DNA of 64,000 nt from Podospora anserina (GCA_017654855.1 CM030337.1:1612001-1676000); one strand, 5' to 3'. Shown: positions 2,539 to 25,750, numbered from the stretch's first letter. Notes: a model not told the origin generated them from the sequence alone. Numbers and translations: made by a program.

Positions 2539-3687
2539 CTAAGCCCGAGCAACGCTCTCAGTCTCGCTAATCACACTGCCAACCTCGGACCAGCTACCAG
2601 GAGTGGCGATCCCATCGTCACTATCGCTCATGATGCCATAGTCCCCATCCTTGGAGGAAGCAGCATCAAAGTTGACATCAACGCCAGATTCAGCGATAGA
2701 GGCAGTGTCATCGCTAGGCGTTCTCTGTCCTTGGCTGAGGTACTCCCCATCAGACATCGGTGGCTCAGGCGTAACAGGCAGAGGCGAGTAAAACCCAGTG
2801 TTAGACTGAGCCCACGCCTGAATCGAGGCATAGGCATCAGACTGGGTGCTGCTGTAGCTGGCAGACATGTCTTGCTCCTCCTCGCGGCCGATGGTCTCGC
2901 TGCGGGTGGTGGGAGTGTGAGTCCCATCCTCGGTCTTCCCATAGGCGTCGGGAAACTGATCACGGAGGCTGGTATCGTTGGATTGCGAGTCGAAATCAAA
3001 GAGAACTTCAGGGTTGGTAGCAGCAACAGCCTTTTGCGCGGGCTCAGGGCTCTGGCTGCGGGGAGTAGCGGCATAGATATCGGATACGGTTTCGTCATGA
3101 TCGGGCTTCAACAAATTGGCGGCTTCCGTCTCGTCGATGTGAGGGCGCTCTTCCAATTCGATACCGTGCTCATCAGCAAAGGGGTTGTAAACCATTGCAG
3201 CATTCAGTCCGCACACGCCTTCGAGGTTGCCACGGCGTCTAACCACATTGTTTGAATCATCCGCTGGATTGGCGCCAGTGTTGTAAACCAAAGTACCGCG
3301 TTCACCAGAGTTGTCAGGCCGTAAGAAGTCATCAAAGGTAGGAAGGCGAGGAGTGGGCAATTCGGCCGATTGTGACTGTTGTTCGTTCCGGCGAGCGTTC
3401 CAATACATCAGTTCCTCTCGTTGTCTCCTCCGTGTTTCGTCGTCAGCATCAACATTGTGAGATTCGTAAAATCCGTGAGCGTCTTCTGGGCGGTTGAAAC
3501 GGGGCTGCCGGTTGTCTGGGTCGAAGTCGTCACCGAGAGAGCGGAGGGCGATGGCGATGCGTCTACGTAGGTCCTCGGCTACGCGGCGGACCTCGGGGCT
3601 TTCATAGATAGCTACAGCTACGGCTGCAGCTACGCCGACTGCAGCTATGCTGACTGAAGCAAGCAAAGCGTGGTTAACAGGGGGCAT
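2539..3687 (-). CDS. Hypothetical protein (382 aa) with an N-terminal hydrophobic anchor and an acidic low-complexity tail
   Basis: Long single ORF with gene-like codon use. Hydrophobic ALLASVSIAAVGVAAAVAVAIYESP start and C-terminal TPGSWSEVGSVISE. A probable 5'UTR intron donor (GTAAGT) lies near 4113. Confidence 0.75.
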   Translation of the reverse strand: MPPVNHALLASVSIAAVGVAAAVAVAIYESPEVRRVAEDLRRRIAIALRSLGDDFDPDNRQPRFNRPEDAHGFYESHNVDADDETRRRQREELMYWNARRNEQQSQSAELPTPRLPTFDDFLRPDNSGERGTLVYNTGANPADDSNNVVRRRGNLEGVCGLNAAMVYNPFADEHGIELEERPHIDETEAANLLKPDHDETVSDIYAATPRSQSPEPAQKAVAATNPEVLFDFDSQSNDTSLRDQFPDAYGKTEDGTHTPTTRSETIGREEEQDMSASYSSTQSDAYASIQAWAQSNTGFYSPLPVTPEPPMSDGEYLSQGQRTPSDDTASIAESGVDVNFDAASSKDGDYGIMSDSDDGIATPGSWSEVGSVISETESVARA

Positions 3688-4929
3688 GTTCGATGTCTGG
3701 TGTACGGATGATGGGGGATTGAAGAAATGCGATAAGCGGAGTGATAATGATAAGGTAGAGAGAGTGGGGCAAGATCAAGCGCTGGGAACTTCTCGACTTG
3801 GAAACCTTGAAGATATTCCTCGCTGCCTCCCTCTCACTGACAGTTGCTGAATGAGAAAGCAACAATACAAAACCCGAGAAAGATTCAACAGAGATCAAGT
3901 ATCCCAACAATTAAAATGAGCTGCCTCGAGGCTTGCGTGTCGTCCATTCGCCACTTGTCACGGGAGTGGCCAGTGCTGACCTAAACCTCGGGCGACAAAC
4001 AACGACGGTGATTTGCACTGAAGAATTGGCGGGGCAAACAAGGGTGCGGGGAACACAACGCAAAAGACAATGCTGTGGTTTTAGACAGGAGAAGGCTAGT
4101 AACAATAACTTACCTTTGGCCGCGATTGGCAGTGGCATCTTTGGAGAGAAACGGCTTCAATCTCCCAAACCTGCTGGCGACGGGTTTGTTTGGCGGGTAG
4201 AGGGTGATGGAAGAGGGAAAAAGGCAGTCAAAGGAAAGTGTCCCAGATAACTGGGAACTGGGGAGCGGCAAAGCAAGTTTGCGCATGCACGCTCGGTGAA
4301 CGGTAACTCCCTCGCCCTGGAAAGCTTACGTAGAGTGCAGGCGGGCGGGTAAGGCGGACCGGAGGCGCACCTCCATGGCAGGGCAGTGGGAAACTCAGTT
4401 TGGTATTCCAGGCACGGGCTCGGGGGCTTCCCCTCACTTTAAACTCATTCAACCTTGGCGTTTATGAGCAGGTGATTCGGTGCTCCAGATGTTTGACACG
4501 CTGGACAACGATGAGCGGTCAATTCCTACAAGAACGGCATTCCCGGTCCAGCCACTTGTTCATGCAGCTGCATAGAATTGACGAATGACCGCCGATAGCA
4601 TCAATGCTCAGTTTAGCAAATCAAGGAGTTTAGAGCCTCGTCACTGACTCAGAAACTCTCAGGAGTACTGGCCTGATTGCGTGTCAGCCTCGGATGTGGC
4701 GCAACTGGGCGTTAGTGTAGATGATTGGCTACACCACCACCACGTTGAAACGCATAATGTTGATATGGAGTTATGACAGCCCAAATAACTAGTGTATGAA
4801 TTGCAGTTAAATCGTCGATTCTGGGAGTACGAAGTAAGTTTTGGCTATTCGAGGGATTCTCTTTGTCTTCAGATCTGAAAGAGAAGTCTCCACACATTCT
4901 CTCAGCCTTGTAAGTGGACATCTCAAGAT

Positions 4930-5620
4930 AAGGTAGGAACTGGATAACTTAGCCCTGCTTTTTACATAAAAACTAACCCCAGCTTCATTGACTTACAGTC
5001 CAAACATTAGATATTTGAAATCCCAGCCTTATATATCAATCGTCCTGACTCTACCTACATAGATGCCGTTCTAGTATAAGATGTCCCAGACCTAGCTTTG
5101 TGTGTTTGTTGTCTTAACTTGACTGGAAATTCTTTCTGATATAGGAAAGTGTTGTTAATTATCTCAGGTAGTCTTTTTTCCTAGCTTTACTTTATAAGGT
5201 CTTAGCTTTCTTAAGACTTAATTCCAACTTTGTGTATCTTAATCTCAGTCTAATCCCAACTTTCTATCTCTGAATCACAGCTTAATCTCCGCTTTATAGA
5301 TATACCTATTATATATACCTATGTAAATAGTCTTAACTTTTTCGAAACTTAAGTAACATAAACTTTATTTATTCTTTTTCTTAGCTTAATATACCTCTAT
5401 TCTCCTCTTTAGTACCCCAACCTCAAATCCAAGCTTTATATTCTATTATCCTAGCTTTTCCTAGACTCAGTCCCAACTTTGAATGTCTATAATCTTAGCT
5501 TTAAATAACTTCAGTCCAAGCTCAGTCCCGACTTTATATATCCATAATCTTAGCTTCATATAACTTCAGTCCCAGCTCTATCCCATCTTTATACAGAGGT
5601 ACCTTAGTACATATAACCTT
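4930..5620. repeat. AT-rich, RIP-like degenerate repeat relic with TCCCAACTT units and a ~55-bp tandem duplication
   Basis: No ORFs; visibly TpA-rich and CpA/TpG-poor. 5466-5520 and 5521-5575 are near-identical (ctcagtcccRacttt...ataatcttagctt..ataacttcagtcc.ag), with a partial third copy to ~5593. Confidence 0.7.
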
Positions 5621-7299
5621 CAAATAGAATCAAGAGCGTCACTGAGCACAGGTATGCACAGGTCTGGACAGACTTGAATTGTGTTTGAGCTAGGTACGAG
5701 AGTACATCATACGTATATTTGAAGTTACCTAGCTAGCAGACCACCCCAGCTATCACCACATAACACGATGTTGAATCGTGAACTTGTCCACCTCAGATTG
5801 TAATCCCTATCCAAAATCCGTCAAGTTACTTGTAATGCTCGGTATGATGCGTGAATTCTCATCTCAGCAATGGCAGTGATCATCACAGCATTCGTACTTT
5901 CCGCATGTCCACGACGAAGAGCAGTGTTTGCACGCACTGTTGTGCTGGATGATTGGGGCCGAAAGAGGACCCAGCAACCCCTAGTGGTCATAATTTGAGA
6001 AGAACTAGGGGCTAGGACAATATGAATGTGATGTATGGATGAATGACTTACGAAAACTTCTCCAGCATACTGTTCGCAGTTGTCCTCTCAATGCTGCCCA
6101 TCCAACGACCAGCTAACGAAGTTCTGAGCGTTGGACATGATGATGGGTACAAGTTCTTCAACTTACTTGTAAGTACAATTGGAGTTTCCAGAGTACTCAA
6201 GCCGGGGTGTACATACCAGTGAGTTTTGAGAGAGTTGTAGGGAACAGCTCAACCGTCTAGTTGGACTGTTGTTTTTGAAATTGATGCTTGGAATGATAGA
6301 GTTCAGGTCATCTCCATCGCGTCCGAAGGCCTCTATTTATGCTTGGTCCAGTGTTCTGCAAGATCGCCCTCAGGCATCCAGGTACGACATACTTCGGTTT
6401 CGGTTCTACACATCGTACACCTGGAGAAGGCACAGAACTACCTTTTGCAGGCACAGTCACTATTCTGGTTGCTTCACAACCAATGATTTGGTGTTCGACC
6501 GCTGCTCCTTGATCAGGTGGCCTGGTGCCAAGGGCTGTTGGCTGTATTCATCCATGATTATCGTCTTTTGCCTCGCTTGCAAAGATAAGAGTTCACGACA
6601 AGGCAACGGCGGTCATAGGCTGTCGATAGGGCGCACTGTGTGCAATTCACGGAAGCGCCTATCCATCCTTGTGTAAAGCCGCATCGAGGCGGGGTGCTTC
6701 AAGCTAATGCACAGAAACACATGTAAGGTAGTCATATATAGAGAGCCTTGTCACGGATCGACAGTGGCCGGTTCCCCGAAAGCTGAGCGTAACAAGCAAT
6801 ATCTCGTGTGCTCTGTTGTGGTGTCTGGTAATGTGTTTGCCATTATCTCAACCAATCATTGGGTGTATGTGATGTGAGGGGCTGCGCCATTCACTGAGGT
6901 CTCAACATGATATGACTAGGCAGCCTGACGCTTGTCACTGCCCCTTGTGGCTAGGTGGGCAGGTAATGTGAATTGATGTTTAAACTAGAACTGAGTACCA
7001 TAAGAAGGGACCCTACCTGTTAAGGTAGGTAAGCATGAAGAAATAGCTTTCCAATAAGAATTTGCCATATCAGTGCAGCCTATGGTCTGACATCTGCTTA
7101 CAAAGACACCAACAACATGCCCACATCCACCCAGCCTGCCGAGTTTCTGATGCTGCAAGAAGCCCTGCCGCTCCGCCAATCCATTACTTGAGAGTCCTCC
7201 AGATATAACCATAAACGAAATATGTAGCAATGTTATTCTGAAGGAGAAACTGGATGGCCCAGGTTCTCTTCCCTTCCTTGAATTGGCATTTCTTTATGC

Positions 7300-8220
7300 T
7301 CAGAATACATCATGCTAACTTATCTGGCGGTAGGACCAGTCGTGGTAAGCGATTGCATCCTGCAAACCTAGCAACCTGAAACGGTCTCCATTAGGGATGG
7401 ATGTTGAGGAATGGCTGAAGGTGGCCATAAATCAAAGGTGGGGTTGGAGAAGATATGGTTCTTTGGCAAGCAATGGAGATAACCGGAAACAGATCAAACT
7501 TCAAGAAGAACCGAACCAGAAGCTTTGCGATGAATTGAGGCGAATAGCTATCTACCTATCTTGGAAAAGAGCCATGGCTATATACCTACTAAACAACATG
7601 CTGAACTACTAGGTAGTTAGAGCATGGTGCCGACTGAGCATCTATTAACCACAGACCAACTCTCATAGAAGAAGAATAACCTTTACTGATACTTCTCAAG
7701 GAATCGGAGCTCAGAGTAGGTACTATGCTACATCACTAGAGTCCGTTGTGGATCAACACTAGAAGCTCTAGAACAGGGGGATTTGGCGGGAGAGCGGGCT
7801 TGTGGAGAAGCGGTTCCTGGGACATCCCTTGGAGAATCTCAACAGGGGTCCTGCCAGGGCTGATGCCCAGAAATCAAACAAGCCTACAAACCACCAGACG
7901 ACAAGCGACGAGCGCTATTGCTAAAGAGCGGGATTTGCTTCCTAGAAAAAGAGAAAGATCCCAAATATCTCATGCCATGAGGTGTTTTTTTGACGGCTAG
8001 GTATTTTATCCACCTTCCGAAAGATCTGAGGGTTTGGGACTGGTTTGCCCGCCCGGAAAACTGCTGCCATTCGGAAGCCCCAGTTAAACTGTTCGGGGGC
8101 TGACCATAGGGTAGGCCAACCGCGGGGTTGTGACCACTTGTCAAGAAGAGTTTGCTTGAATGCTTCCATCTCATGAATGTCTCTACTCCGTACTTCCATC
8201 TGAACACTATTACCTTCATC
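7300..8220 (+). pseudogene. Probable degraded gene remnant of unknown family
   Basis: Intron-like signals (GCTAAC...TAG|GACCAGTCGTG|GTAAGC...TTAG) lead into a protein-like frame (MDVEEWLKVAINQRWGW...LCDELRRIAIYLSWKRAM...) broken by several stops. Confidence 0.3.
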
Positions 8221-8397
8221 TGCTTAACACGACGTCAACAACCACCACGCAAACATATTGTCCACCGACGTATAGGCACCCGGAAATAAAGCCTCCGAAG
8301 CTCCAACTGTTTGAGCAATTGGCCCCTATCTGGTAACAGTTTCCTTGGACCAGAATACTGCCAAGTGCGGGGAATGAGGGGGGTAAGATTGCTCAGG

Positions 8398-8404
8398 TGA
8401 GTCA
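8398..8404. promoter_or_regulatory. Cpc1/Gcn4 binding site TGAGTCA upstream of CysRS
   Basis: Exact TGA(G/C)TCA about 270 nt upstream of the CysRS start. Aminoacyl-tRNA synthetase genes are classic cross-pathway control targets. It also overlaps a possible GTGAGT splice donor. Confidence 0.5.
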
Positions 8405-8673
8405 CTCCTGCCTCGAATTGCCAAACAACAACTTAATCAGGGACAATCTATTAGCCAGGTTTATTTTCGCATACTCCCCTTCTCACCTTTTCACCAAAAG
8501 TACACTCATTCCCTTCTTCCGGACGAGTACTTCTTAATGCTGACAATCGTAACAATTGTAGCTGTTACCTAGTCGAACTCTTCCCCTCACCTTGACAAAG
8601 GTGCAACCACCGTTGGTTTTATTTCACCCCTTTTCTTCGATGCTAACGGTTTCAACAGTCACCCACAAACAGC

Positions 8674-11119
8674 ATGGCTTCCGACGCTCGTAAACAGCCA
8701 AAATGAACCCCCCCCAAGCCCATGACGCTCGGCTGCCCCTATTGAAGATCTACAACAGCTTAACGCGGACCAAGAATGACTTCATTCCAGTTGATCCAAC
8801 AGGGGAAGTCGTTACGTGGTACGCCTGCGGCCCTACAGTGTACGAAGACGCCCATCTGGGCCACGCCAAGAATTATGTGTCGACCGACATCATTCGCCGT
8901 ATCATGAGGGACTATTTCGGCTTCCGAGTCAAGTTCGTCATGAATACCACCGATATCGACGACAAGATTATCCTCCAGGCTCGTCGTCAACACCTGCTCG
9001 CGCGATTCAAGCATCAGCATGCTGAGGAAGAGACAGTTAGTGAGACGGTTCTGGCTGAGGTGAAGGCCGCATTTCTCCAATATGTTGGCAAGAATCTGCC
9101 GTCGTTGCCGGGGGATATGAACCCAGAGAGCTTCGCCGAGGAAGTCAACAAGGCGTACAAGGAAACGCTACAAAGCCAGAGTGTTACTGTCGAGGATTTG
9201 CTGCTCAGGGCGCATATTGGGACAGCACAGTTGGCTGCCGAGGCCCTCCAAAACCCTGAAACAGCGTCTGAGTTCTTCGCCAAAGCTGACGATGTCCTGC
9301 TGCCATATCTGGATGCATTGCATGGTGCCTCTATCGACTCGAACAATCATCAGATTTACCTGGAGCTGAGCCAGAAATTCGAGCGCCGCTTCTTCGAAGA
9401 CATGGATGCGCTGAACGTCCTGCCTCCAGATCAACTGACACGTGTGACCGAGTATGTCAGACAAATCGTCGACTTTGTAGAGAAGATTGTGGCGAATGGT
9501 TTCGGGTACGCTACCCCCGATGGTTCCGTCTACTTCGATATCGACTCGTTTGAGAAAGCTGGGCATAGCTACTCCCGGCTGGAACCATGGAACAAGAACG
9601 ACCCTGCCCTTTTGGCTGATGGCGAGGGGTCGCTGTCCAAAGGAGCATCTATGAAGAGGAGCCCGAATCATTTTGCCCTGTGGAAGGCCAGCAAGCCAGG
9701 CGAACCAGCCTGGGATAGCCCGTGGGGTCGTGGGCGGCCTGGGTGGCACATTGAATGCTCTGCCATGGCGTCGGAAGCGATAGGGAAGACGATGGATATC
9801 CATTCCGGAGGGGTTGACCTTCGTTTCCCTCACCATGACAACGAGTTGGCACAGTCAGAGGCGTATTGGTCGACTCCGGACTGCCATGTGCAGTGGGCAA
9901 ACTACTTCATTCATATGGGTCAACTGAGGCAAGTGATAGCACCAACGACTTCAGCGACACAGCGCAGCTAACTGAAAATAGGATCCGGGGCTTGAAGATG
10001 AGCAAGAGTCTTAAGAACTACACAACTATTCGAAGTGTGCTCTCCGAGAAAGACTGGACTGCTCGGTCTCTCCGAATCTGCTTCCTTTTGATGCCTTGGC
10101 AGGATGGTATTGAGGTGACGGATGAGCTCATGAAGGCGGTAATTGGGTGGGAGGGCAAGCTTAATAATTTCTTGTTGAAGAGCTTGGATCTGTCAAAACA
10201 CACTCGCCCCAATGCCGAGGGTCAAGATATTGGGGTTGCTGACCAGCAGTTGCTGAAGTCTCTGGAGAAGGCGAAGGCCGACGTCGACAATGCGCTCTGC
10301 GATTCCTTCAACATCTCCTCTGTGATGAGAATCCTCTCTGATCTTGTCACCGAGGCGAACTCAGCCGAGAAGCTTGCCGACGAAACAGTCCTCTCCCTGG
10401 CGCGCTGGGTTACTCGCATTGTCACCATCTTCGGCCTGGATCCTGAAGGGGATCTCACCAATTCAGAACGTATAGGGTGGTCCGGACTCAATATTCCGGC
10501 GCCAGCAAAGCCTTACATATACCCTGCATCGCAATTGCGTGACAAGGTCCGAACCCTAGCAATCGGCTCGGCGGTCGATCATGATGCCATTTCCAAGCTC
10601 GCTGATGAGGCAACCCTCGCCACGCCTACCTCTATCGACACTTCAGAGCCTTACAGTCAGGTGCTGCAGGAATTCCGCAAAAGCGTTAAAGATTTGGCAG
10701 CTGAGAAAGCACCGGCCAAGGATTTGCTTGTCTTGTGTGACCAGCTTCGCGATGTGCACCTCTGGAACCTAGGGATATATCTGGAGGACCGCAATAGCCC
10801 TCTTCCTGCCTTGGTGAGGCCTCTCGATAAGTCTCTCATAGAGGCTCGCGCAGAGCAAGAGTCCCTTGCTATCGCCAAAGCCAAGGCCAAGCTGGAGCAG
10901 AAAGCAAAGGAGGCTGAGAAAGAGAGGGAGCTGCGGGGACGTGCCAAAATCGATCCTGTGGCAATGTTCAAGACGTCTGAGTATAAGGAATGGGATGATA
11001 GTGGCATTCCTACTTTGGATGCCAAGGGGGAGGTCATTTCTAAAAATAGGCGCAAGAAGTTGGTTAAGGAGTGGGAGAAGCAGAAAAAGTTGCACGATGA
11101 TTGGCTGGCAACCCAATAA
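8674..11119 (+). CDS. Cysteinyl-tRNA synthetase (divergent), 2 coding exons; in-frame ORF starts at 8703, upstream ATG 8674 is out of frame
   Basis: CGPTVY..HLGH (HIGH motif), [24 protein letters not shown] (Zn ligands) and KMSKS. Intron 9929-9981 joins [18 protein letters not shown]. Eukaryotic C-terminal extension (EWDDSGIPT...[13 protein letters not shown]). Confidence 0.93.
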
Positions 11120-11469
11120 CTGGCTTAGGTAAGGGCTGGCTCCTTTTTTTTCCTCCGATTTTTCCTCCGTCTTTCCCTCCTCCAGATATTACCACCCTAC
11201 AAAGGTTGGAAGAGATGGGGGTTATGTACACATAGGATATCGTCGCAGAGGGGGGGGGCGGGTTTCAATAGAATAAGGGCTCCAGACAAATTGTTTAGGG
11301 TGTGTGTTGTACTGCTAAGAATTCCACCGAAGAGACCCATTTTAAAACATACCCTAAGATGCAAAGACCCAGTAACTCACGGATCCTCCTTACTCAGCCA
11401 GTTCCACATCACCTCCGTTTCTTCCATTCATAATATAGGAGTATAAGAAGTTTGGACTGGGGAAATAAA

Positions 11470-11690
11470 AGTTGGGACGAGAAGGGATAGAAGTTGGGAT
11501 TGGAATATAGAAATGCTGGGATTAGAAGGGTAAGATGCTGGGATTGGAAGATGGTGATGCTGGATTAGAAAGGTAAGATGTTGGGATTGGAAAGGTGAGA
11601 TGCTGAGATTGGAAAGGTGAGATGTAGAGATGGGGGGGTGAGAAGTGGGGACTATATGGGTGAGAAGTTGGGACGAGGCTGGGGTAAAAG
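11470..11690. repeat. ~22-bp degenerate minisatellite (GATGCTGGGATTGGAAAGGTRA), about 8-10 copies
   Basis: Successive units aaatgctgggattagaagggtaa / gatgctgggattggaagatggt / gatgctggattagaaaggtaa / gatgttgggattggaaaggtga / gatgctgagattggaaaggtga, with flanking aagttggga copies. Confidence 0.85.
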
Positions 11691-13547
11691 TATTAGGGGT
11701 AATGTATACTCTTAGCGTGTACAATACACATACCCAATAGGCAGGGCGATGCCTCCTCTCCACTATTTGTTCTGACAATAATTGGGGCGAAACTCCAGAA
11801 AGTTGTGGTGAATGAAATAGCTATGGCTGGAGCTTTGCTTTACTTACCATAACTGAAAGCTGGTAAATGTGGGAGTTTTAGCGACCAAGAATTCTCTGGA
11901 TGCTTATTGGCCTACTCCTTTGTTTGGAGTATTCACTCCTTTTTGGGAGATACGGGTGAAAGACCACGAGGACGACTTCGCTCCTGCCTTTTGTGGCAAT
12001 GGCAACCACAGTCAAAGGTATCTTGTGCCATTGATCTTTTAAAACATAACTTTTGTTAGTAAGTCTTTGTGATAAGAAAAGAGAGCGTTCGACACCTCGT
12101 ACTACAAGGTGGAAAGTATGGAGAAAATTTGTTAGGATACGGGCCTTCAAGGATAATTGATATGTCTTTGAGATAGTGAGCTAATAAAGGTAGGTAGGGT
12201 GCCTCCGAAGTTTTTCTTGCTTCCCCAAATCCAACTCAATAATATGATGTAAGGTACGGCAGGTACTTTGGGGCGCCCATGAATGTTCAGAGAAAACGAC
12301 GAGTTAAGTTGTGAATATAGTAGAGAATGCTCCCCTGTAATACCTACGTGGGGCTATGAAACTACCACTGTACTGATGAACAGATTAAACATCTTTTCAC
12401 AATTCTTCTAACTATATCTCGTGTGTCTTTCCACTTTCTTGAACAACATAGGTAATGGGCAAGCAATAAAAGTATACCCCCTTGAAATCCCACACTCGGA
12501 TCGCCAAGGCGAAACCACCAAAACAAGCTTTCAAGCCAAGATCAAGCCCGGCTTGGCCATCCTTCGTTTCCTCACCCCTTGTACCGATCTTCGACGACAT
12601 CGCATTCTAAAACTTGATATTGCTGGTGTCATTGTCAATTCCTATAAAACGGTCTTTAGCTTCCTCAGCGAGGCTCGGGACAGGCAAGGGTCTCACCTTT
12701 AATCAAGCGTTAGCTTTGAGGCTTATAAACCAGCAAATTCCCATTGGGCACTTGGGCAAGCGTATCGCTCAACGGTCTCCTGACCCCTCCTTAGTGTGAG
12801 CATGTTTTCAGTGGTACATAACTCCACTTCCGAGTATAGTGGCATAAGGAAGATGTCGGAATTTGAGTTTAAGGGTTTCCACTCCACTCGATCTAAACGC
12901 TCTAGCCCGCGCATAACGCTCCATGGGGATCCAACCTCTGTTAGACATCTCCACGGCAAAGGCGGCATAATTTCCAAGTGTTCATGCACCAAAGCAGGAA
13001 GGCAGGCATGTTGTAACTTTGATAATTTTTATTTTGTGTACATCCCTAGCCAAACTCGGATATTGTTCCTTCAAACTTAGCCAACTAATCAAATGATATT
13101 ATTTAACGCCTTAAACACCTTTCCCAATCCCGCTTATGACAAACCAAAACCAATGTGCCCCAAAAAAAAAAAAAAACAAAAAAAAACCCGCGATCTCTCG
13201 GAATCCCGAAAGTGGTGAAGACGGTGACGTCCCGAGCCAGTCGCTCGCGAAAAAGACAAGCTGAAAGAGCTCCACAATTGCGCGCGTTTCCAGCTTGTGC
13301 CGATGGGATCCACACCACAGCTCCACCCCCGATATATCCGTTCAATGGTAGAATTATCCCCGGATCCCGAATCCCGGGATCGTGGAGAAATATCGTGGGG
13401 GAAAGCCAGGAGGCGGGATTTTTGGACCCCCCAAAGCCCTGAACCCTATTCAGCTCATCCCGGGACTTGCAGCTGAGCGATATCGGCACCACCACCAACC
13501 ACCATCAGCAACTCAGAGAGAACATCGTGAGTGTGTGAGGTAGGTAA

Positions 13548-24361: not shown

Positions 24362-25750
24362 GGAACGTTTTATGGATATTGAACTAAGGATCATTTCAGC
24401 AGAGCAGGTTAGGCATGTTAGTTGGGGATTTTCAGGGGGGGTTATGTTGGAAGAGAGAAGGAAAGTAGGTTATGGGAGTTAGTTTGGTGGTTAGATGTTT
24501 TGATAAGTCAGAGTGGTTTTGAAGAAGAATGTCTTTTGTGTGATCTTGGGCGTTGTTGTAAGTTGGGATATTGGAACGAGAAACTAGGAATGATACGCAA
24601 GAGAACCTGAGATAATAGACAAGCAAAGCCGGGACAAAGTTGGGATCGTATGCAGGAAAACCTCGGGTTATGCTTGGATAAATTCTTTCCATGTGTTTGG
24701 ACTGTAAGGACAGACAGGCAAGTTCAGCTGTATCAAATAAGAGAGAGAGAGAAACCCTTTCCAAAGCGCCCTATCTATGTTTCCAGCACCCCCTCCGCCA
24801 ATGATTTGTAGATCATATGCTTTTACTTTTAAATATGCTGCTCCTTTCAATATTGGTGAGATAAGTGGTCATCTTTACTTGGTCAAAGACATGTGTTAAA
24901 AGAGACGGAATAGTGACAAACATCTCTGGGAACGTGATCGCCAGATGAGTAAATATATATAGCGCCGTCCGTTAAAGCGATCCGTGGAAAAAAAAACGAA
25001 GTAAAAAAACGGCAAAGCAGCAAAGAAAAGGGCCTGCAAGTAGGCCTAAGATTGCAAATCCAATATAAATAACCAGGGCGTCTTGAAAGGTCATCTCGTC
25101 AGCAAATCTGGTTGCTTCTACATTAATGTGAAGATAAGAGTGTTCATCAGTGCCTGCGTATCTCATACCTCATGCTTTAACACATTGTGTACAAGAAAAA
25201 AACAGATATCTTCATTTTTATACTTGGGTATTTTTTGGTCTATTGAACCATCCGTATCAGCGCCGGAGAAAATCACCTCCTACTCCTTCCCACTTCCCTG
25301 CTGGATTTCGTCGACAACACCCCAAGTCATACAGTAACTCCATCATTATCTTTCATTTCCGCTTACTCCCTCCCAGCCTCCTGCAAAACTCCCCATTCAT
25401 TGTAGTCGTACAGTACGCTTGGTACATGTTGTGTGGTGAAATATATATGTCGTGTGCTTTTTTTAGGGTTTTGCGCTTTTGGTGTTTTTGTGATTTGGTA
25501 TCCGACAGCGTAAGAAATATAATGTCCGGTTTGTGTTGTTTGATTCCCCCCAACTGTCCAGGTGCAGGTATCCATTCGAGCTCATGTCAAAAAGCCCTCC
25601 CATCACTCCAACTCCCGCCTTTCGCTTCCAAGCAAGACAAAGCCAGATTAAATAGATCATCAACTGGGCAAACAAAAACAATGTTGGCCCGACATCTCTG
25701 AGAAATGAAAAAAAAAGCCATGTTGATGTTTAGTGCCTCCATCCAGCCCT

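Follow-up and report, generated by a model that had tools for sequence, protein, structure and literature searches.

The 64-kb stretch of Podospora anserina DNA analysed here (GCA_017654855.1, CM030337.1:1612001-1676000; hereafter the window) contains a gene for cysteinyl-tRNA synthetase (CysRS) with an array of short tandem repeats on either side. The two arrays are best explained as distantly related minisatellites of a single 22-nt family with the core TCCCARC, lying at two separate intergenic spots beside a resident CysRS gene, and not as the ends of a mobile element. We put the probability of this reading at roughly 0.55. A preliminary description of the window had placed the arrays on both sides of the gene in opposite orientation, and Tandem Repeats Finder, motif enrichment and the strand separation of the motifs all bear this out. 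It had offered two origins for them. One, subterminal repeats of a non-autonomous DNA element carrying CysRS as cargo, gained no positive support and is unsupported. The other, in which one repeat family occurs twice independently, agrees better with the data and comes near our own explanation. The arrays are real, ordinary in kind and probably related.

Structure and Composition of the Two Arrays

Tandem arrays were called with Tandem Repeats Finder. The left array is an AT-rich relic at about 4975-5595, with its C-rich strand on the plus strand. Its units share the TCCCARC core and stand in 22-nt and sometimes 11-nt phase. Core-like sites in 22-nt phase are found at 4977-4999-5021, 5428-5449-5471 and 5526-5570. 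The relic thus begins at about 4977 and is wider than previously described, with a start at 5220. Two blocks are called inside it, 5217-5287 with a period of 32 (2.2 copies, 74% matches) and 5466-5593 with a period of 55 (2.3 copies, 83% matches).

The right array is an intact minisatellite at about 11450-11690 on the minus strand, with about 11 units of 21-22 nt. On that strand the sequence is TCCCAGCATCTYACC in the central units and TCCCAACTTYTAT in those at the edges. The region 11481-11624 is called with a period of 22 (6.6 copies, 72% matches) and 11473-11625 with a period of 44 (3.5 copies, 81%). All calls together span 11473-11631 with periods of 22, 43 and 44. A repeat search finds six copies in register at spacings of 22/22/43/22/22. 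Both arrays consist of short units arranged head to tail, as minisatellites do.

The two arrays differ in composition. As thresholds for repeat-induced point mutation (RIP) we take a TpA/ApT ratio exceeding about 0.89 together with a (CpA+TpG)/(ApC+GpT) ratio of less than about 1.03. The values for the whole window are 0.64 and 1.26. The left array has a GC content of 0.33 and indices of 1.31 and 0.85, both on the RIP side. Intervals of 400 nt with less than 38% GC are confined to 4901-5700 in the 64 kb. The right array carries no RIP signature, with a GC content of 0.46 and indices of 0.67 and 1.43. In composition, the left array looks like a RIP relic and the right array does not.

Resemblance between the Arrays

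Common to both arrays are the core TCCCARC and a phase of 22 nt, and some units match over their full length. The extended core TCCCARCTT has 9 matches in the 64 kb against 1.44 expected, and none of 100 shuffles reaches 9. Two of the matches are in the left array (plus strand), three in the right array (minus strand) and four elsewhere. AATCCCARC likewise has 9 matches against 1.41 expected, again reached by none of 100 shuffles, with two on the left (plus), four on the right (minus) and three elsewhere. For both motifs the strands are separated, with every left-array match on the plus strand and every right-array match on the minus strand.

Sensitive blastn between 4300-5900 and 11100-12600 gives 12 high-scoring segment pairs (HSPs). 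Ten are inverted, and all ten lie within 4975-5522 on the left and 11449-11563 on the right; the best shows 64.5% identity over 110 nt (E 1.4e-4). Whole-unit matches of 82-87% over 22-23 nt connect left units with the TCCCAACTTYTAT-type edge units of the right array. The best of them (87% over 23 nt) pairs left 5249-5271 with the inner-edge right unit at 11483-11504. The left units are less similar to the central TCCCAGCATCT-type units of the right array than to its edge units. Local alignment of the left array with the reverse complement of the right array scores 34, and with its forward strand 19. A position matrix built from the right units has its best match outside the right array at left 5254 (18.1 bits), although this matrix mixed two registers and most of its matches are CT-rich noise. 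Neither the matrix nor blastn detects a further array of the TCCCARC family in the 64 kb. This resemblance lends moderate support to descent of both arrays from one type of unit, with a derived unit homogenised later on the right.

Mutation type was counted from right to left over HSPs that overlap. C>T is the commonest single class of mismatch, with 35 of 143. RIP can be ruled out as the full cause of the divergence between left and right, because 77 of the 143 mismatches are transversions.

A metagenome scan for three cores at 22-nt spacing returned 37 stretches, many of them from one assembly. They can be ruled out as relatives of the arrays, since the printed flanks of all 37 show other spacers. 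The stretch that looks most similar (L036) lies among close-packed open reading frames (ORFs) and AT-rich DNA and is prokaryote-like. Many of the stretches L003-L037 come from one metagenome assembly, in which a 22-nt satellite, GGAATCCCAACTGAGTAACACA, is abundant and often lies at contig ends; it is unrelated to the window except for the 9-nt core. Inside the window, the region 24380-24680, directly after the stop codon of Sec5, is G-rich and contains AAGTTGGGAT twice. Its similarity to the left array in blastn is weak, 73-83% over 24-37 nt with E values of 0.3-0.9.

Orientation and a Possible History of the Arrays

The ancestral unit may have been roughly TCCCAACTTYTAT; slippage during replication, or unequal exchange, would lengthen and shorten arrays of it. 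At about 620 bp, the left array could have been long enough for RIP and would have decayed into an AT-rich relic. The right array, of about 240 bp, would have stayed below the RIP size threshold and could still be homogenised, its central units being of the putatively derived TCCCAGCATCT type.

The opposite orientation of the arrays could follow from the adjacent transcription units, because these point away from each other. A non-coding unit next to the left array is transcribed from the minus strand, and CysRS next to the right array from the plus strand. The G-rich strand of each array is the sense strand just 3' of its unit. This agrees with a G>C skew that follows most genes in the window: of 14 gene ends set from ORF stops, 11 are followed within 700 nt by an excess of G over C on the sense strand. 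The word TTGGGA occurs in the same 700-nt intervals 11 times in sense and once in antisense. These counts are suggestive only; on this view the arrays would owe their orientation to the strand composition that prevails downstream of genes, or possibly to a function.

Transcript evidence here and below comes from contigs of four runs from four studies, aligned to 3500-13500. The RNA origin of these contigs is shown by their spliced joints, as none of the runs is recorded as RNA. Contigs cannot define RNA ends, and a stop shared between contigs is a weak hint at most. Contig depths were not used to rank expression. The contig-free bins at 5170-5503 (all four runs) and over most of the right array (three of the four) carry no evidential weight.

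If orientation reflects function, the arrays could be cis elements downstream of two divergent units, with phased binding sites for termination or insulation. Both arrays start about 100-250 nt from the contig stops of the adjacent unit, the lowest being 5687 on the left and the other 11219 on the right, the latter a weak hint. The sense strand in both reads AAGTTGGGA or GCTGGGATT, and this word recurs at 24560 and 24637, shortly beyond the stop codon of Sec5. The bias of TTGGGA downstream of the 14 genes (11 sense against 1 antisense) points in the same direction. Yet the sample is tiny, the bias shrinks to 5 against 1 when the arrays are left out, and GGGATT is unbiased (4 against 3). The RIP-like decay of the left array argues against constraint, and contigs are unsuited to placing RNA ends. 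We know of no factor that binds the TCCCARC core. A cis-regulatory role is thus rather improbable.

Several points weigh against two minisatellites of one family. The strand-skew argument is built entirely on the 14 gene ends, which were set from ORF stops, and the 5 against 1 for TTGGGA outside the two array-bearing units is not significant. A conserved core with free spacers at a phase of two helical turns would also fit an array of protein-binding sites. The alignment score of 34 stands against 22.6 +/- 3.2 for 200 dinucleotide shuffles, the maximum of which is also 34. Outside the core, identity between the arrays is 59-87% in short HSPs, and the spacers beyond the 7-9-nt core barely align. 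In the overlapping HSPs, the 77 transversions outnumber the 42 RIP-type transitions among 143 mismatches. Moreover, one family and independent spots are both inferred from a single 64-kb region.

Some of these points are what would be expected if the arrays were unrelated low-complexity pyrimidine/purine tracts, expanded separately and alike only through composition and a short word. The best of the 200 shuffles equals the alignment score, the spacers are unalignable, and transversions dominate. In addition, 32 of the 51 matches of the right-unit matrix at 10 bits or more are in unrelated CT-rich stretches of the window, and the 37 metagenome stretches with other spacers show that such cores arise independently in tandem repeats. 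On the other hand, the core is enriched 6-fold in the window, to a count that none of the 100 shuffles attains. Both arrays keep the same 22-nt phase, 10 of the 12 HSPs have the same relative orientation, and left units match right edge units at 82-87% over their whole length of 22-23 nt. Separate expansion of unrelated tracts is thus unlikely, and common descent of the two minisatellites is preferred.

Are the Arrays the Ends of a Mobile Element?

In Foldback (FB-type) transposons, and with the subterminal arrays of CACTA and hAT elements, unrelated DNA can lie between inverted arms that consist of short tandem subrepeats. The region 4975-11690 might accordingly be a worn foldback-like or other non-autonomous element, with the subrepeats as transposase-binding sites and CysRS as cargo. 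The likeness to these systems lies in the inverted arms with a conserved, regularly phased core. The arrays are inverted, they have a common core, a fixed 22-nt phase and free spacers, and about 3 kb of the interior between them has no recognisable coding gene, in a core region that is otherwise gene-dense. The CysRS clade, described below, also has a non-vertical character, with flat distances of 0.31-0.55 and rejection of Sordariales monophyly in the approximately unbiased (AU) test (p-AU 1.3e-5).

No positive evidence for an element was found. No terminal inverted repeat (TIR) was found, and there is no inverted similarity outside 4975-5522 and 11449-11563. By eye, no direct repeat stands beside the outermost core-like units at about 4976 and 11688, the ends themselves not being defined. 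Transposase and recombinase domains are missing from all 16 flanking and interior ORFs searched with Pfam. The earlier statement that no transposase, recombinase, clear TIR or target-site duplication (TSD) is visible therefore holds after the repeat search, blastn, Pfam and reading by eye. Starships are described as having a DUF3435 tyrosine-recombinase "captain" at one end (PMC11905480). No such captain is present in the 16 ORFs around and inside the interval or in 12 further ORFs, of which nine match housekeeping families in Pfam and three match nothing.

The arms are inverted and made of tandem subrepeats, as in Foldback elements, though only 59-87% alike in short HSPs. They are also unequal in length (about 620 against 240 bp), a single locus is known, and no defined termini, TSD (by eye), terminal motif or transposase, nor any similarity beyond the arrays, was found. 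RIP-like indices are seen in one arm only, although RIP would be expected on both copies of a recognised duplicate. Different histories of the two arms are thereby indicated, which is more in keeping with independent arrays than with a recognised pair.

The bracketing lies within what chance could produce. For two arrays placed at random in 64 kb, our own arithmetic gives a probability of 0.5 that they are inverted and of about 0.2 that they lie within 6.5 kb, together about 0.1. The inverted arrangement therefore carries little weight. Furthermore, CysRS appears to be vertically inherited among its closest relatives, so any delivery would be old, yet minisatellites turn over quickly. The stretch was found in 24 sequencing runs, all under one organism label, and every sampled word is present in 14 of them (share 1.00). 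It is intact in all of these 14, which possibly represent one strain and several of which are perhaps from the source strain. Taken together, an element with CysRS as cargo is very unlikely. An origin of the left side from an inverted copy of CysRS can be ruled out, because tblastn reveals no CysRS remnant elsewhere in the window.

Minisatellites of the ordinary kind remain the better comparison. According to the P. anserina genome paper, candidate polymorphic markers were sought among microsatellites, minisatellites and indels; RIP is described there as well (PMC2441463). Like fungal intergenic minisatellites and RIP relics, the arrays of the window are intergenic and have 22-nt units arranged head to tail with higher-order periods of 32-55 nt. 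The left block is AT-rich with RIP dinucleotide indices, as in RIP relics. Unlike ordinary fungal minisatellites, the window has two arrays, apparently of one family, 6 kb apart and in opposite orientation.

The CysRS Gene

The CysRS transcription unit extends over 8206-11256 on the plus strand, with a coding sequence at 8703-9928 and 9982-11119 that encodes 787 aa. One intron, with GC-AG ends, interrupts the coding sequence at 9929-9981, and another lies in the 5' leader at 8599-8656. The corresponding joints, 9926/9980 and 8598/8657, are present in all four runs. The former can be shifted by up to three places, and its sole splice-like reading is the GC..AG intron 9929-9981. Splicing there restores the conserved sequence of relatives and leaves the frame open. 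Further leader introns, 8395-8452 and 8500-8561, are seen in one run, whose contig reaches back to about 8206. At the 3' side contigs stop at 11219 (two studies) and 11256 (one study), and one contig (X19) spans 10927-11573, entering the right array.

The gene is expressed and correctly spliced, and its product is a class I synthetase. Every homolog listed (the best 120 of 5174) carries PF01406 as a precomputed domain. Compared with solved structures, it matches 9yru at E 4.6e-96 and the E. coli enzyme 1li5 at E 4.2e-59. The motifs HIGH (as HLGH) and KMSKS are both present in its translation. Also conserved are the residues that align with C28, C209, H234 and E238 of the E. coli enzyme, which are ligands of zinc and of the substrate cysteine. 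A search of the ESM Atlas returned generic CysRS clusters only. The gene thus looks functional, and it is expressed and resident. In these motifs and aligned residues it is like a canonical eukaryotic cytosolic-type CysRS (PF01406; 9yru, 1li5). It is unlike one in its GC-AG intron and in its N-terminus, shortened by a frame break that left an overlapping upstream ORF (uORF).

Among the matches listed, the closest is a Podospora comata protein (P0001) with 97% identity, followed at full length by Triangularia verruculosa (87%), T. setosa (85%) and Apiosordaria backusii (82%). Identity to the other fungal CysRS clades tested is 55-61%: A. fumigatus 55%, C. parasitica 58%, Madurella 59% and A. 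terreus HFD88 61%.

The start of the gene differs from that of relatives. The N-terminus of relatives is MASDSRKQPRW-IAPQAHD, and tblastn places MASDAR at 8674-8691. This ancestral start is kept by a uORF of 10 codons at 8674-8706 on the plus strand, whose TGA overlaps the main ATG at 8703 (ATGA). The layout corresponds to the loss of one nucleotide from the former Trp codon, and it breaks the frame by 1 nt compared with the Triangularia proteins. Because the RNA contigs have no indel with respect to the window, the break is not an assembly error. CysRS is thus predicted to be translated from an internal AUG created by the frame break. P. comata P0001 likewise begins at this internal Met, beside a poly-Pro tract of different length. 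A poly-C tract directly follows the start at 8703, and its length differs in P. comata, judged from the protein of that species.

P. comata P0001 has Tyr at the position equivalent to C209, where the window has the Cys of WHIEC. Several other changes, compared at the protein level only, are compatible with G:C>A:T at the DNA level. These changes may reflect relaxed constraint or mild RIP in P. comata. The annotation of P0001 also lacks 12 residues just before the GC-AG intron, probably a gene-model effect of the GC donor, as the annotation would have needed a GT donor.

A Separate, Patchily Distributed CysRS Clade

The homolog search (best 120 of 5174) was extended with searches from the Parathielavia and Madurella proteins, giving 165 proteins. 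A FastTree phylogeny was built from 123 rows, the window protein and 122 named proteins, after 43 near-duplicates or proteins of unnamed organisms had been left out. The window CysRS falls in a clade of 62 rows with support of 100. By class these rows divide into 46 Sordariomycetes, 9 Dothideomycetes, 4 Eurotiomycetes and 3 Leotiomycetes. The clade again has a support of 100 in a quick IQ-TREE analysis (LG+G4) of 56 rows, made up of 48 clade members of at least 740 aa and 8 outgroups, with 14 shorter members left out. The protein had been called divergent in the preliminary description, which is right in an unexpected way, as it belongs to a separate clade with a patchy distribution.

On the 56-row tree, the AU test rejects a single clade of the 13 Sordariales members (log-likelihood difference 155, p-AU 1.3e-5). 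It does not reject the grouping of all 37 Sordariomycetes in one clade (p-AU 0.10), and scrambling at the class level is accordingly not upheld as proof of transfer. The groups for both tests were named after the tree had been seen, which weakens both.

At least five species among the rows have a clade member together with another CysRS: Byssothecium circinans, Periconia macrospinosa, Pseudovirgaria hyperparasitica, Thyridium curvatum and Aspergillus terreus. In pairs drawn from four of these five, distances within the clade are flat, 0.31-0.55. Distances between the other CysRS copies are as low as 0.15 (within Pleosporales) and as high as 1.22 (between classes), and the ratio of the two swings from 2.0 to 0.32. 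The window CysRS is 0.49 from that of Cladorrhinum, of the same family, versus 0.41 from that of Aspergillus terreus. Neurospora and other well-studied Sordariales are absent among the matches listed (best 120 per search), which suggests a patchy distribution. Based on these distances and this distribution, the sequences point to a non-vertical past of the clade.

The local branching is clean. The window and P. comata are sisters, followed by T. verruculosa, T. setosa and A. backusii, with supports of 99-100. This order matches what we take to be the relationships of Podospora, Triangularia and Apiosordaria. From the clean Podospora/Triangularia branching the gene looks long resident in this lineage, which argues against a recent capture.

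Two side observations concern other CysRS proteins. The Thyridium curvatum protein P0020 (1259 aa), of the same clade, is annotated as a fusion with peptidase M20 domains (PF01546, PF07687); either a neighbouring gene was merged by annotation or the fusion is real. Proteins P0070, P0076, P0082 and others form a group of Madurella, Coniochaeta, Phialemonium, Diplogelasinospora and one Cytospora with 65-85% identity. Other Cytospora species have a different type of CysRS, and the Madurella/Coniochaeta group is another taxonomically odd clade.

It can be speculated that the clade is a horizontally moving accessory synthetase lineage, and that the arrays with the 3 kb of non-coding, spliced DNA are the eroded vehicle, foldback-like or larger, that delivered it into an ancestor of Podospora and Triangularia. 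This scenario is highly improbable. If it were true, an aminoacyl-tRNA synthetase would be the cargo of a eukaryotic mobile element, and CysRS would perhaps have been kept through resistance to a CysRS-directed metabolite or through cysteine/persulfide metabolism.

The Interior and the Flanking Genes

The DNA between the arrays had been described as holding only gene remnants besides CysRS. Pfam agrees in that none of the 10 interior stop-to-stop ORFs of at least 70 aa, nor any of 6 flank ORFs, has a family at E up to 0.07; matches at E 0.08-0.16 among these 16 ORFs were judged to be noise. The word "only" does not stand, since the interior contains a spliced transcript. It lies at 5687-7021 on the minus strand and has an intron at 6156-6216 (CT..AC on the plus strand, that is, GT..AG on the minus strand). 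The joint 6155/6217 is seen in three of the four runs, and the fourth has 6161/6217, an alternative donor. The longest ATG-initiated ORF in the spliced form is 56 aa. As Rfam on 3500-13500 and a tRNA scan of the window gave no match, the transcript is not explained as a snoRNA host or a tRNA. "Gene remnants" is a fair term for the interior, one remnant still being transcribed and spliced.

Between the non-coding unit and the CysRS leader, low-depth transcripts are found at 7021-7915 on the plus strand, with GT..AG joints at 7021/7103 (one run) and 7260/7332 (two runs). Neither the interior at 5601-8650 nor CysRS has a RIP signature. Position 7678 is A in the window and G in the contigs of two runs (X15 and X19), which could be a strain difference or RNA editing.

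On the left, the interval is flanked by a gene at 2539-4389 on the minus strand (stop-to-stop ORF 2539-3774), encoding 382 aa from the first Met and without a Pfam family. A 460-nt intron at 3654-4113 lies near its 5' end, with the joint 3653/4114 (CT..AC) in three of the four runs. On the right, a transcript at 12262-12700 on the minus strand is convergent with CysRS. It is covered by contig pieces at 12262-12643 and 12365-12640 and has an intron at about 12641-12695, with the joint 12640/12696 (CT..AC) in one run. The 35 nt at 12139-12173 are the only part of certain contigs in two runs (X15, X19) that matches here. The 183-255 letters on either side do not fit, so this segment is also part of a transcript from elsewhere.

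By Pfam, the neighbouring genes encode a BSP peptidase, Sec5, a DUF676 esterase, MTHFR, Csf1 and an EF-G-like protein. An NAD-isocitrate dehydrogenase was named by reading its ORF, without a family search. Judging by these assignments, the surroundings are core and housekeeping genes.

Significance

The arrays are ordinary as repeats, and they show how readily an inverted pair of minisatellites mimics the ends of an element. The more unusual item is the CysRS clade, which merits a study of its own. Its features are so far not tied to the arrays.

Accessory copies of aminoacyl-tRNA synthetases that spread horizontally are familiar in bacteria, for example, drug-insensitive IleRS, ThrRS and TrpRS. 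Like them, the fungal clade is a second synthetase type, patchy in distribution, present beside another CysRS in at least five species, and with a gene tree in conflict with taxonomy. Unlike them, it has a eukaryotic host, and Pfam of the neighbours reveals no biosynthetic cluster beside the window CysRS. To our knowledge, there is no fungal metabolite that targets CysRS. In the accessible part of a review of duplicated aminoacyl-tRNA synthetases, the CysRS paralogs named are bacterial only, CysRS* and MshC (PMC9437257). A literature search found no report of an accessory fungal CysRS, of the TCCCARC repeat family, or of an aminoacyl-tRNA synthetase as cargo in Starships, although the search was limited and is not proof of absence.

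Enzymes of translation are commonly regarded as markers that are stable and inherited vertically. If a CysRS lineage is scattered among four fungal classes, eukaryotes would provide a clear example of a synthetase that is accessory and possibly transferable. The Podospora gene is in addition a natural test of start choice, with strong RNA-contig cover and an AUG that overlaps the stop codon of a uORF made of its own former N-terminus.

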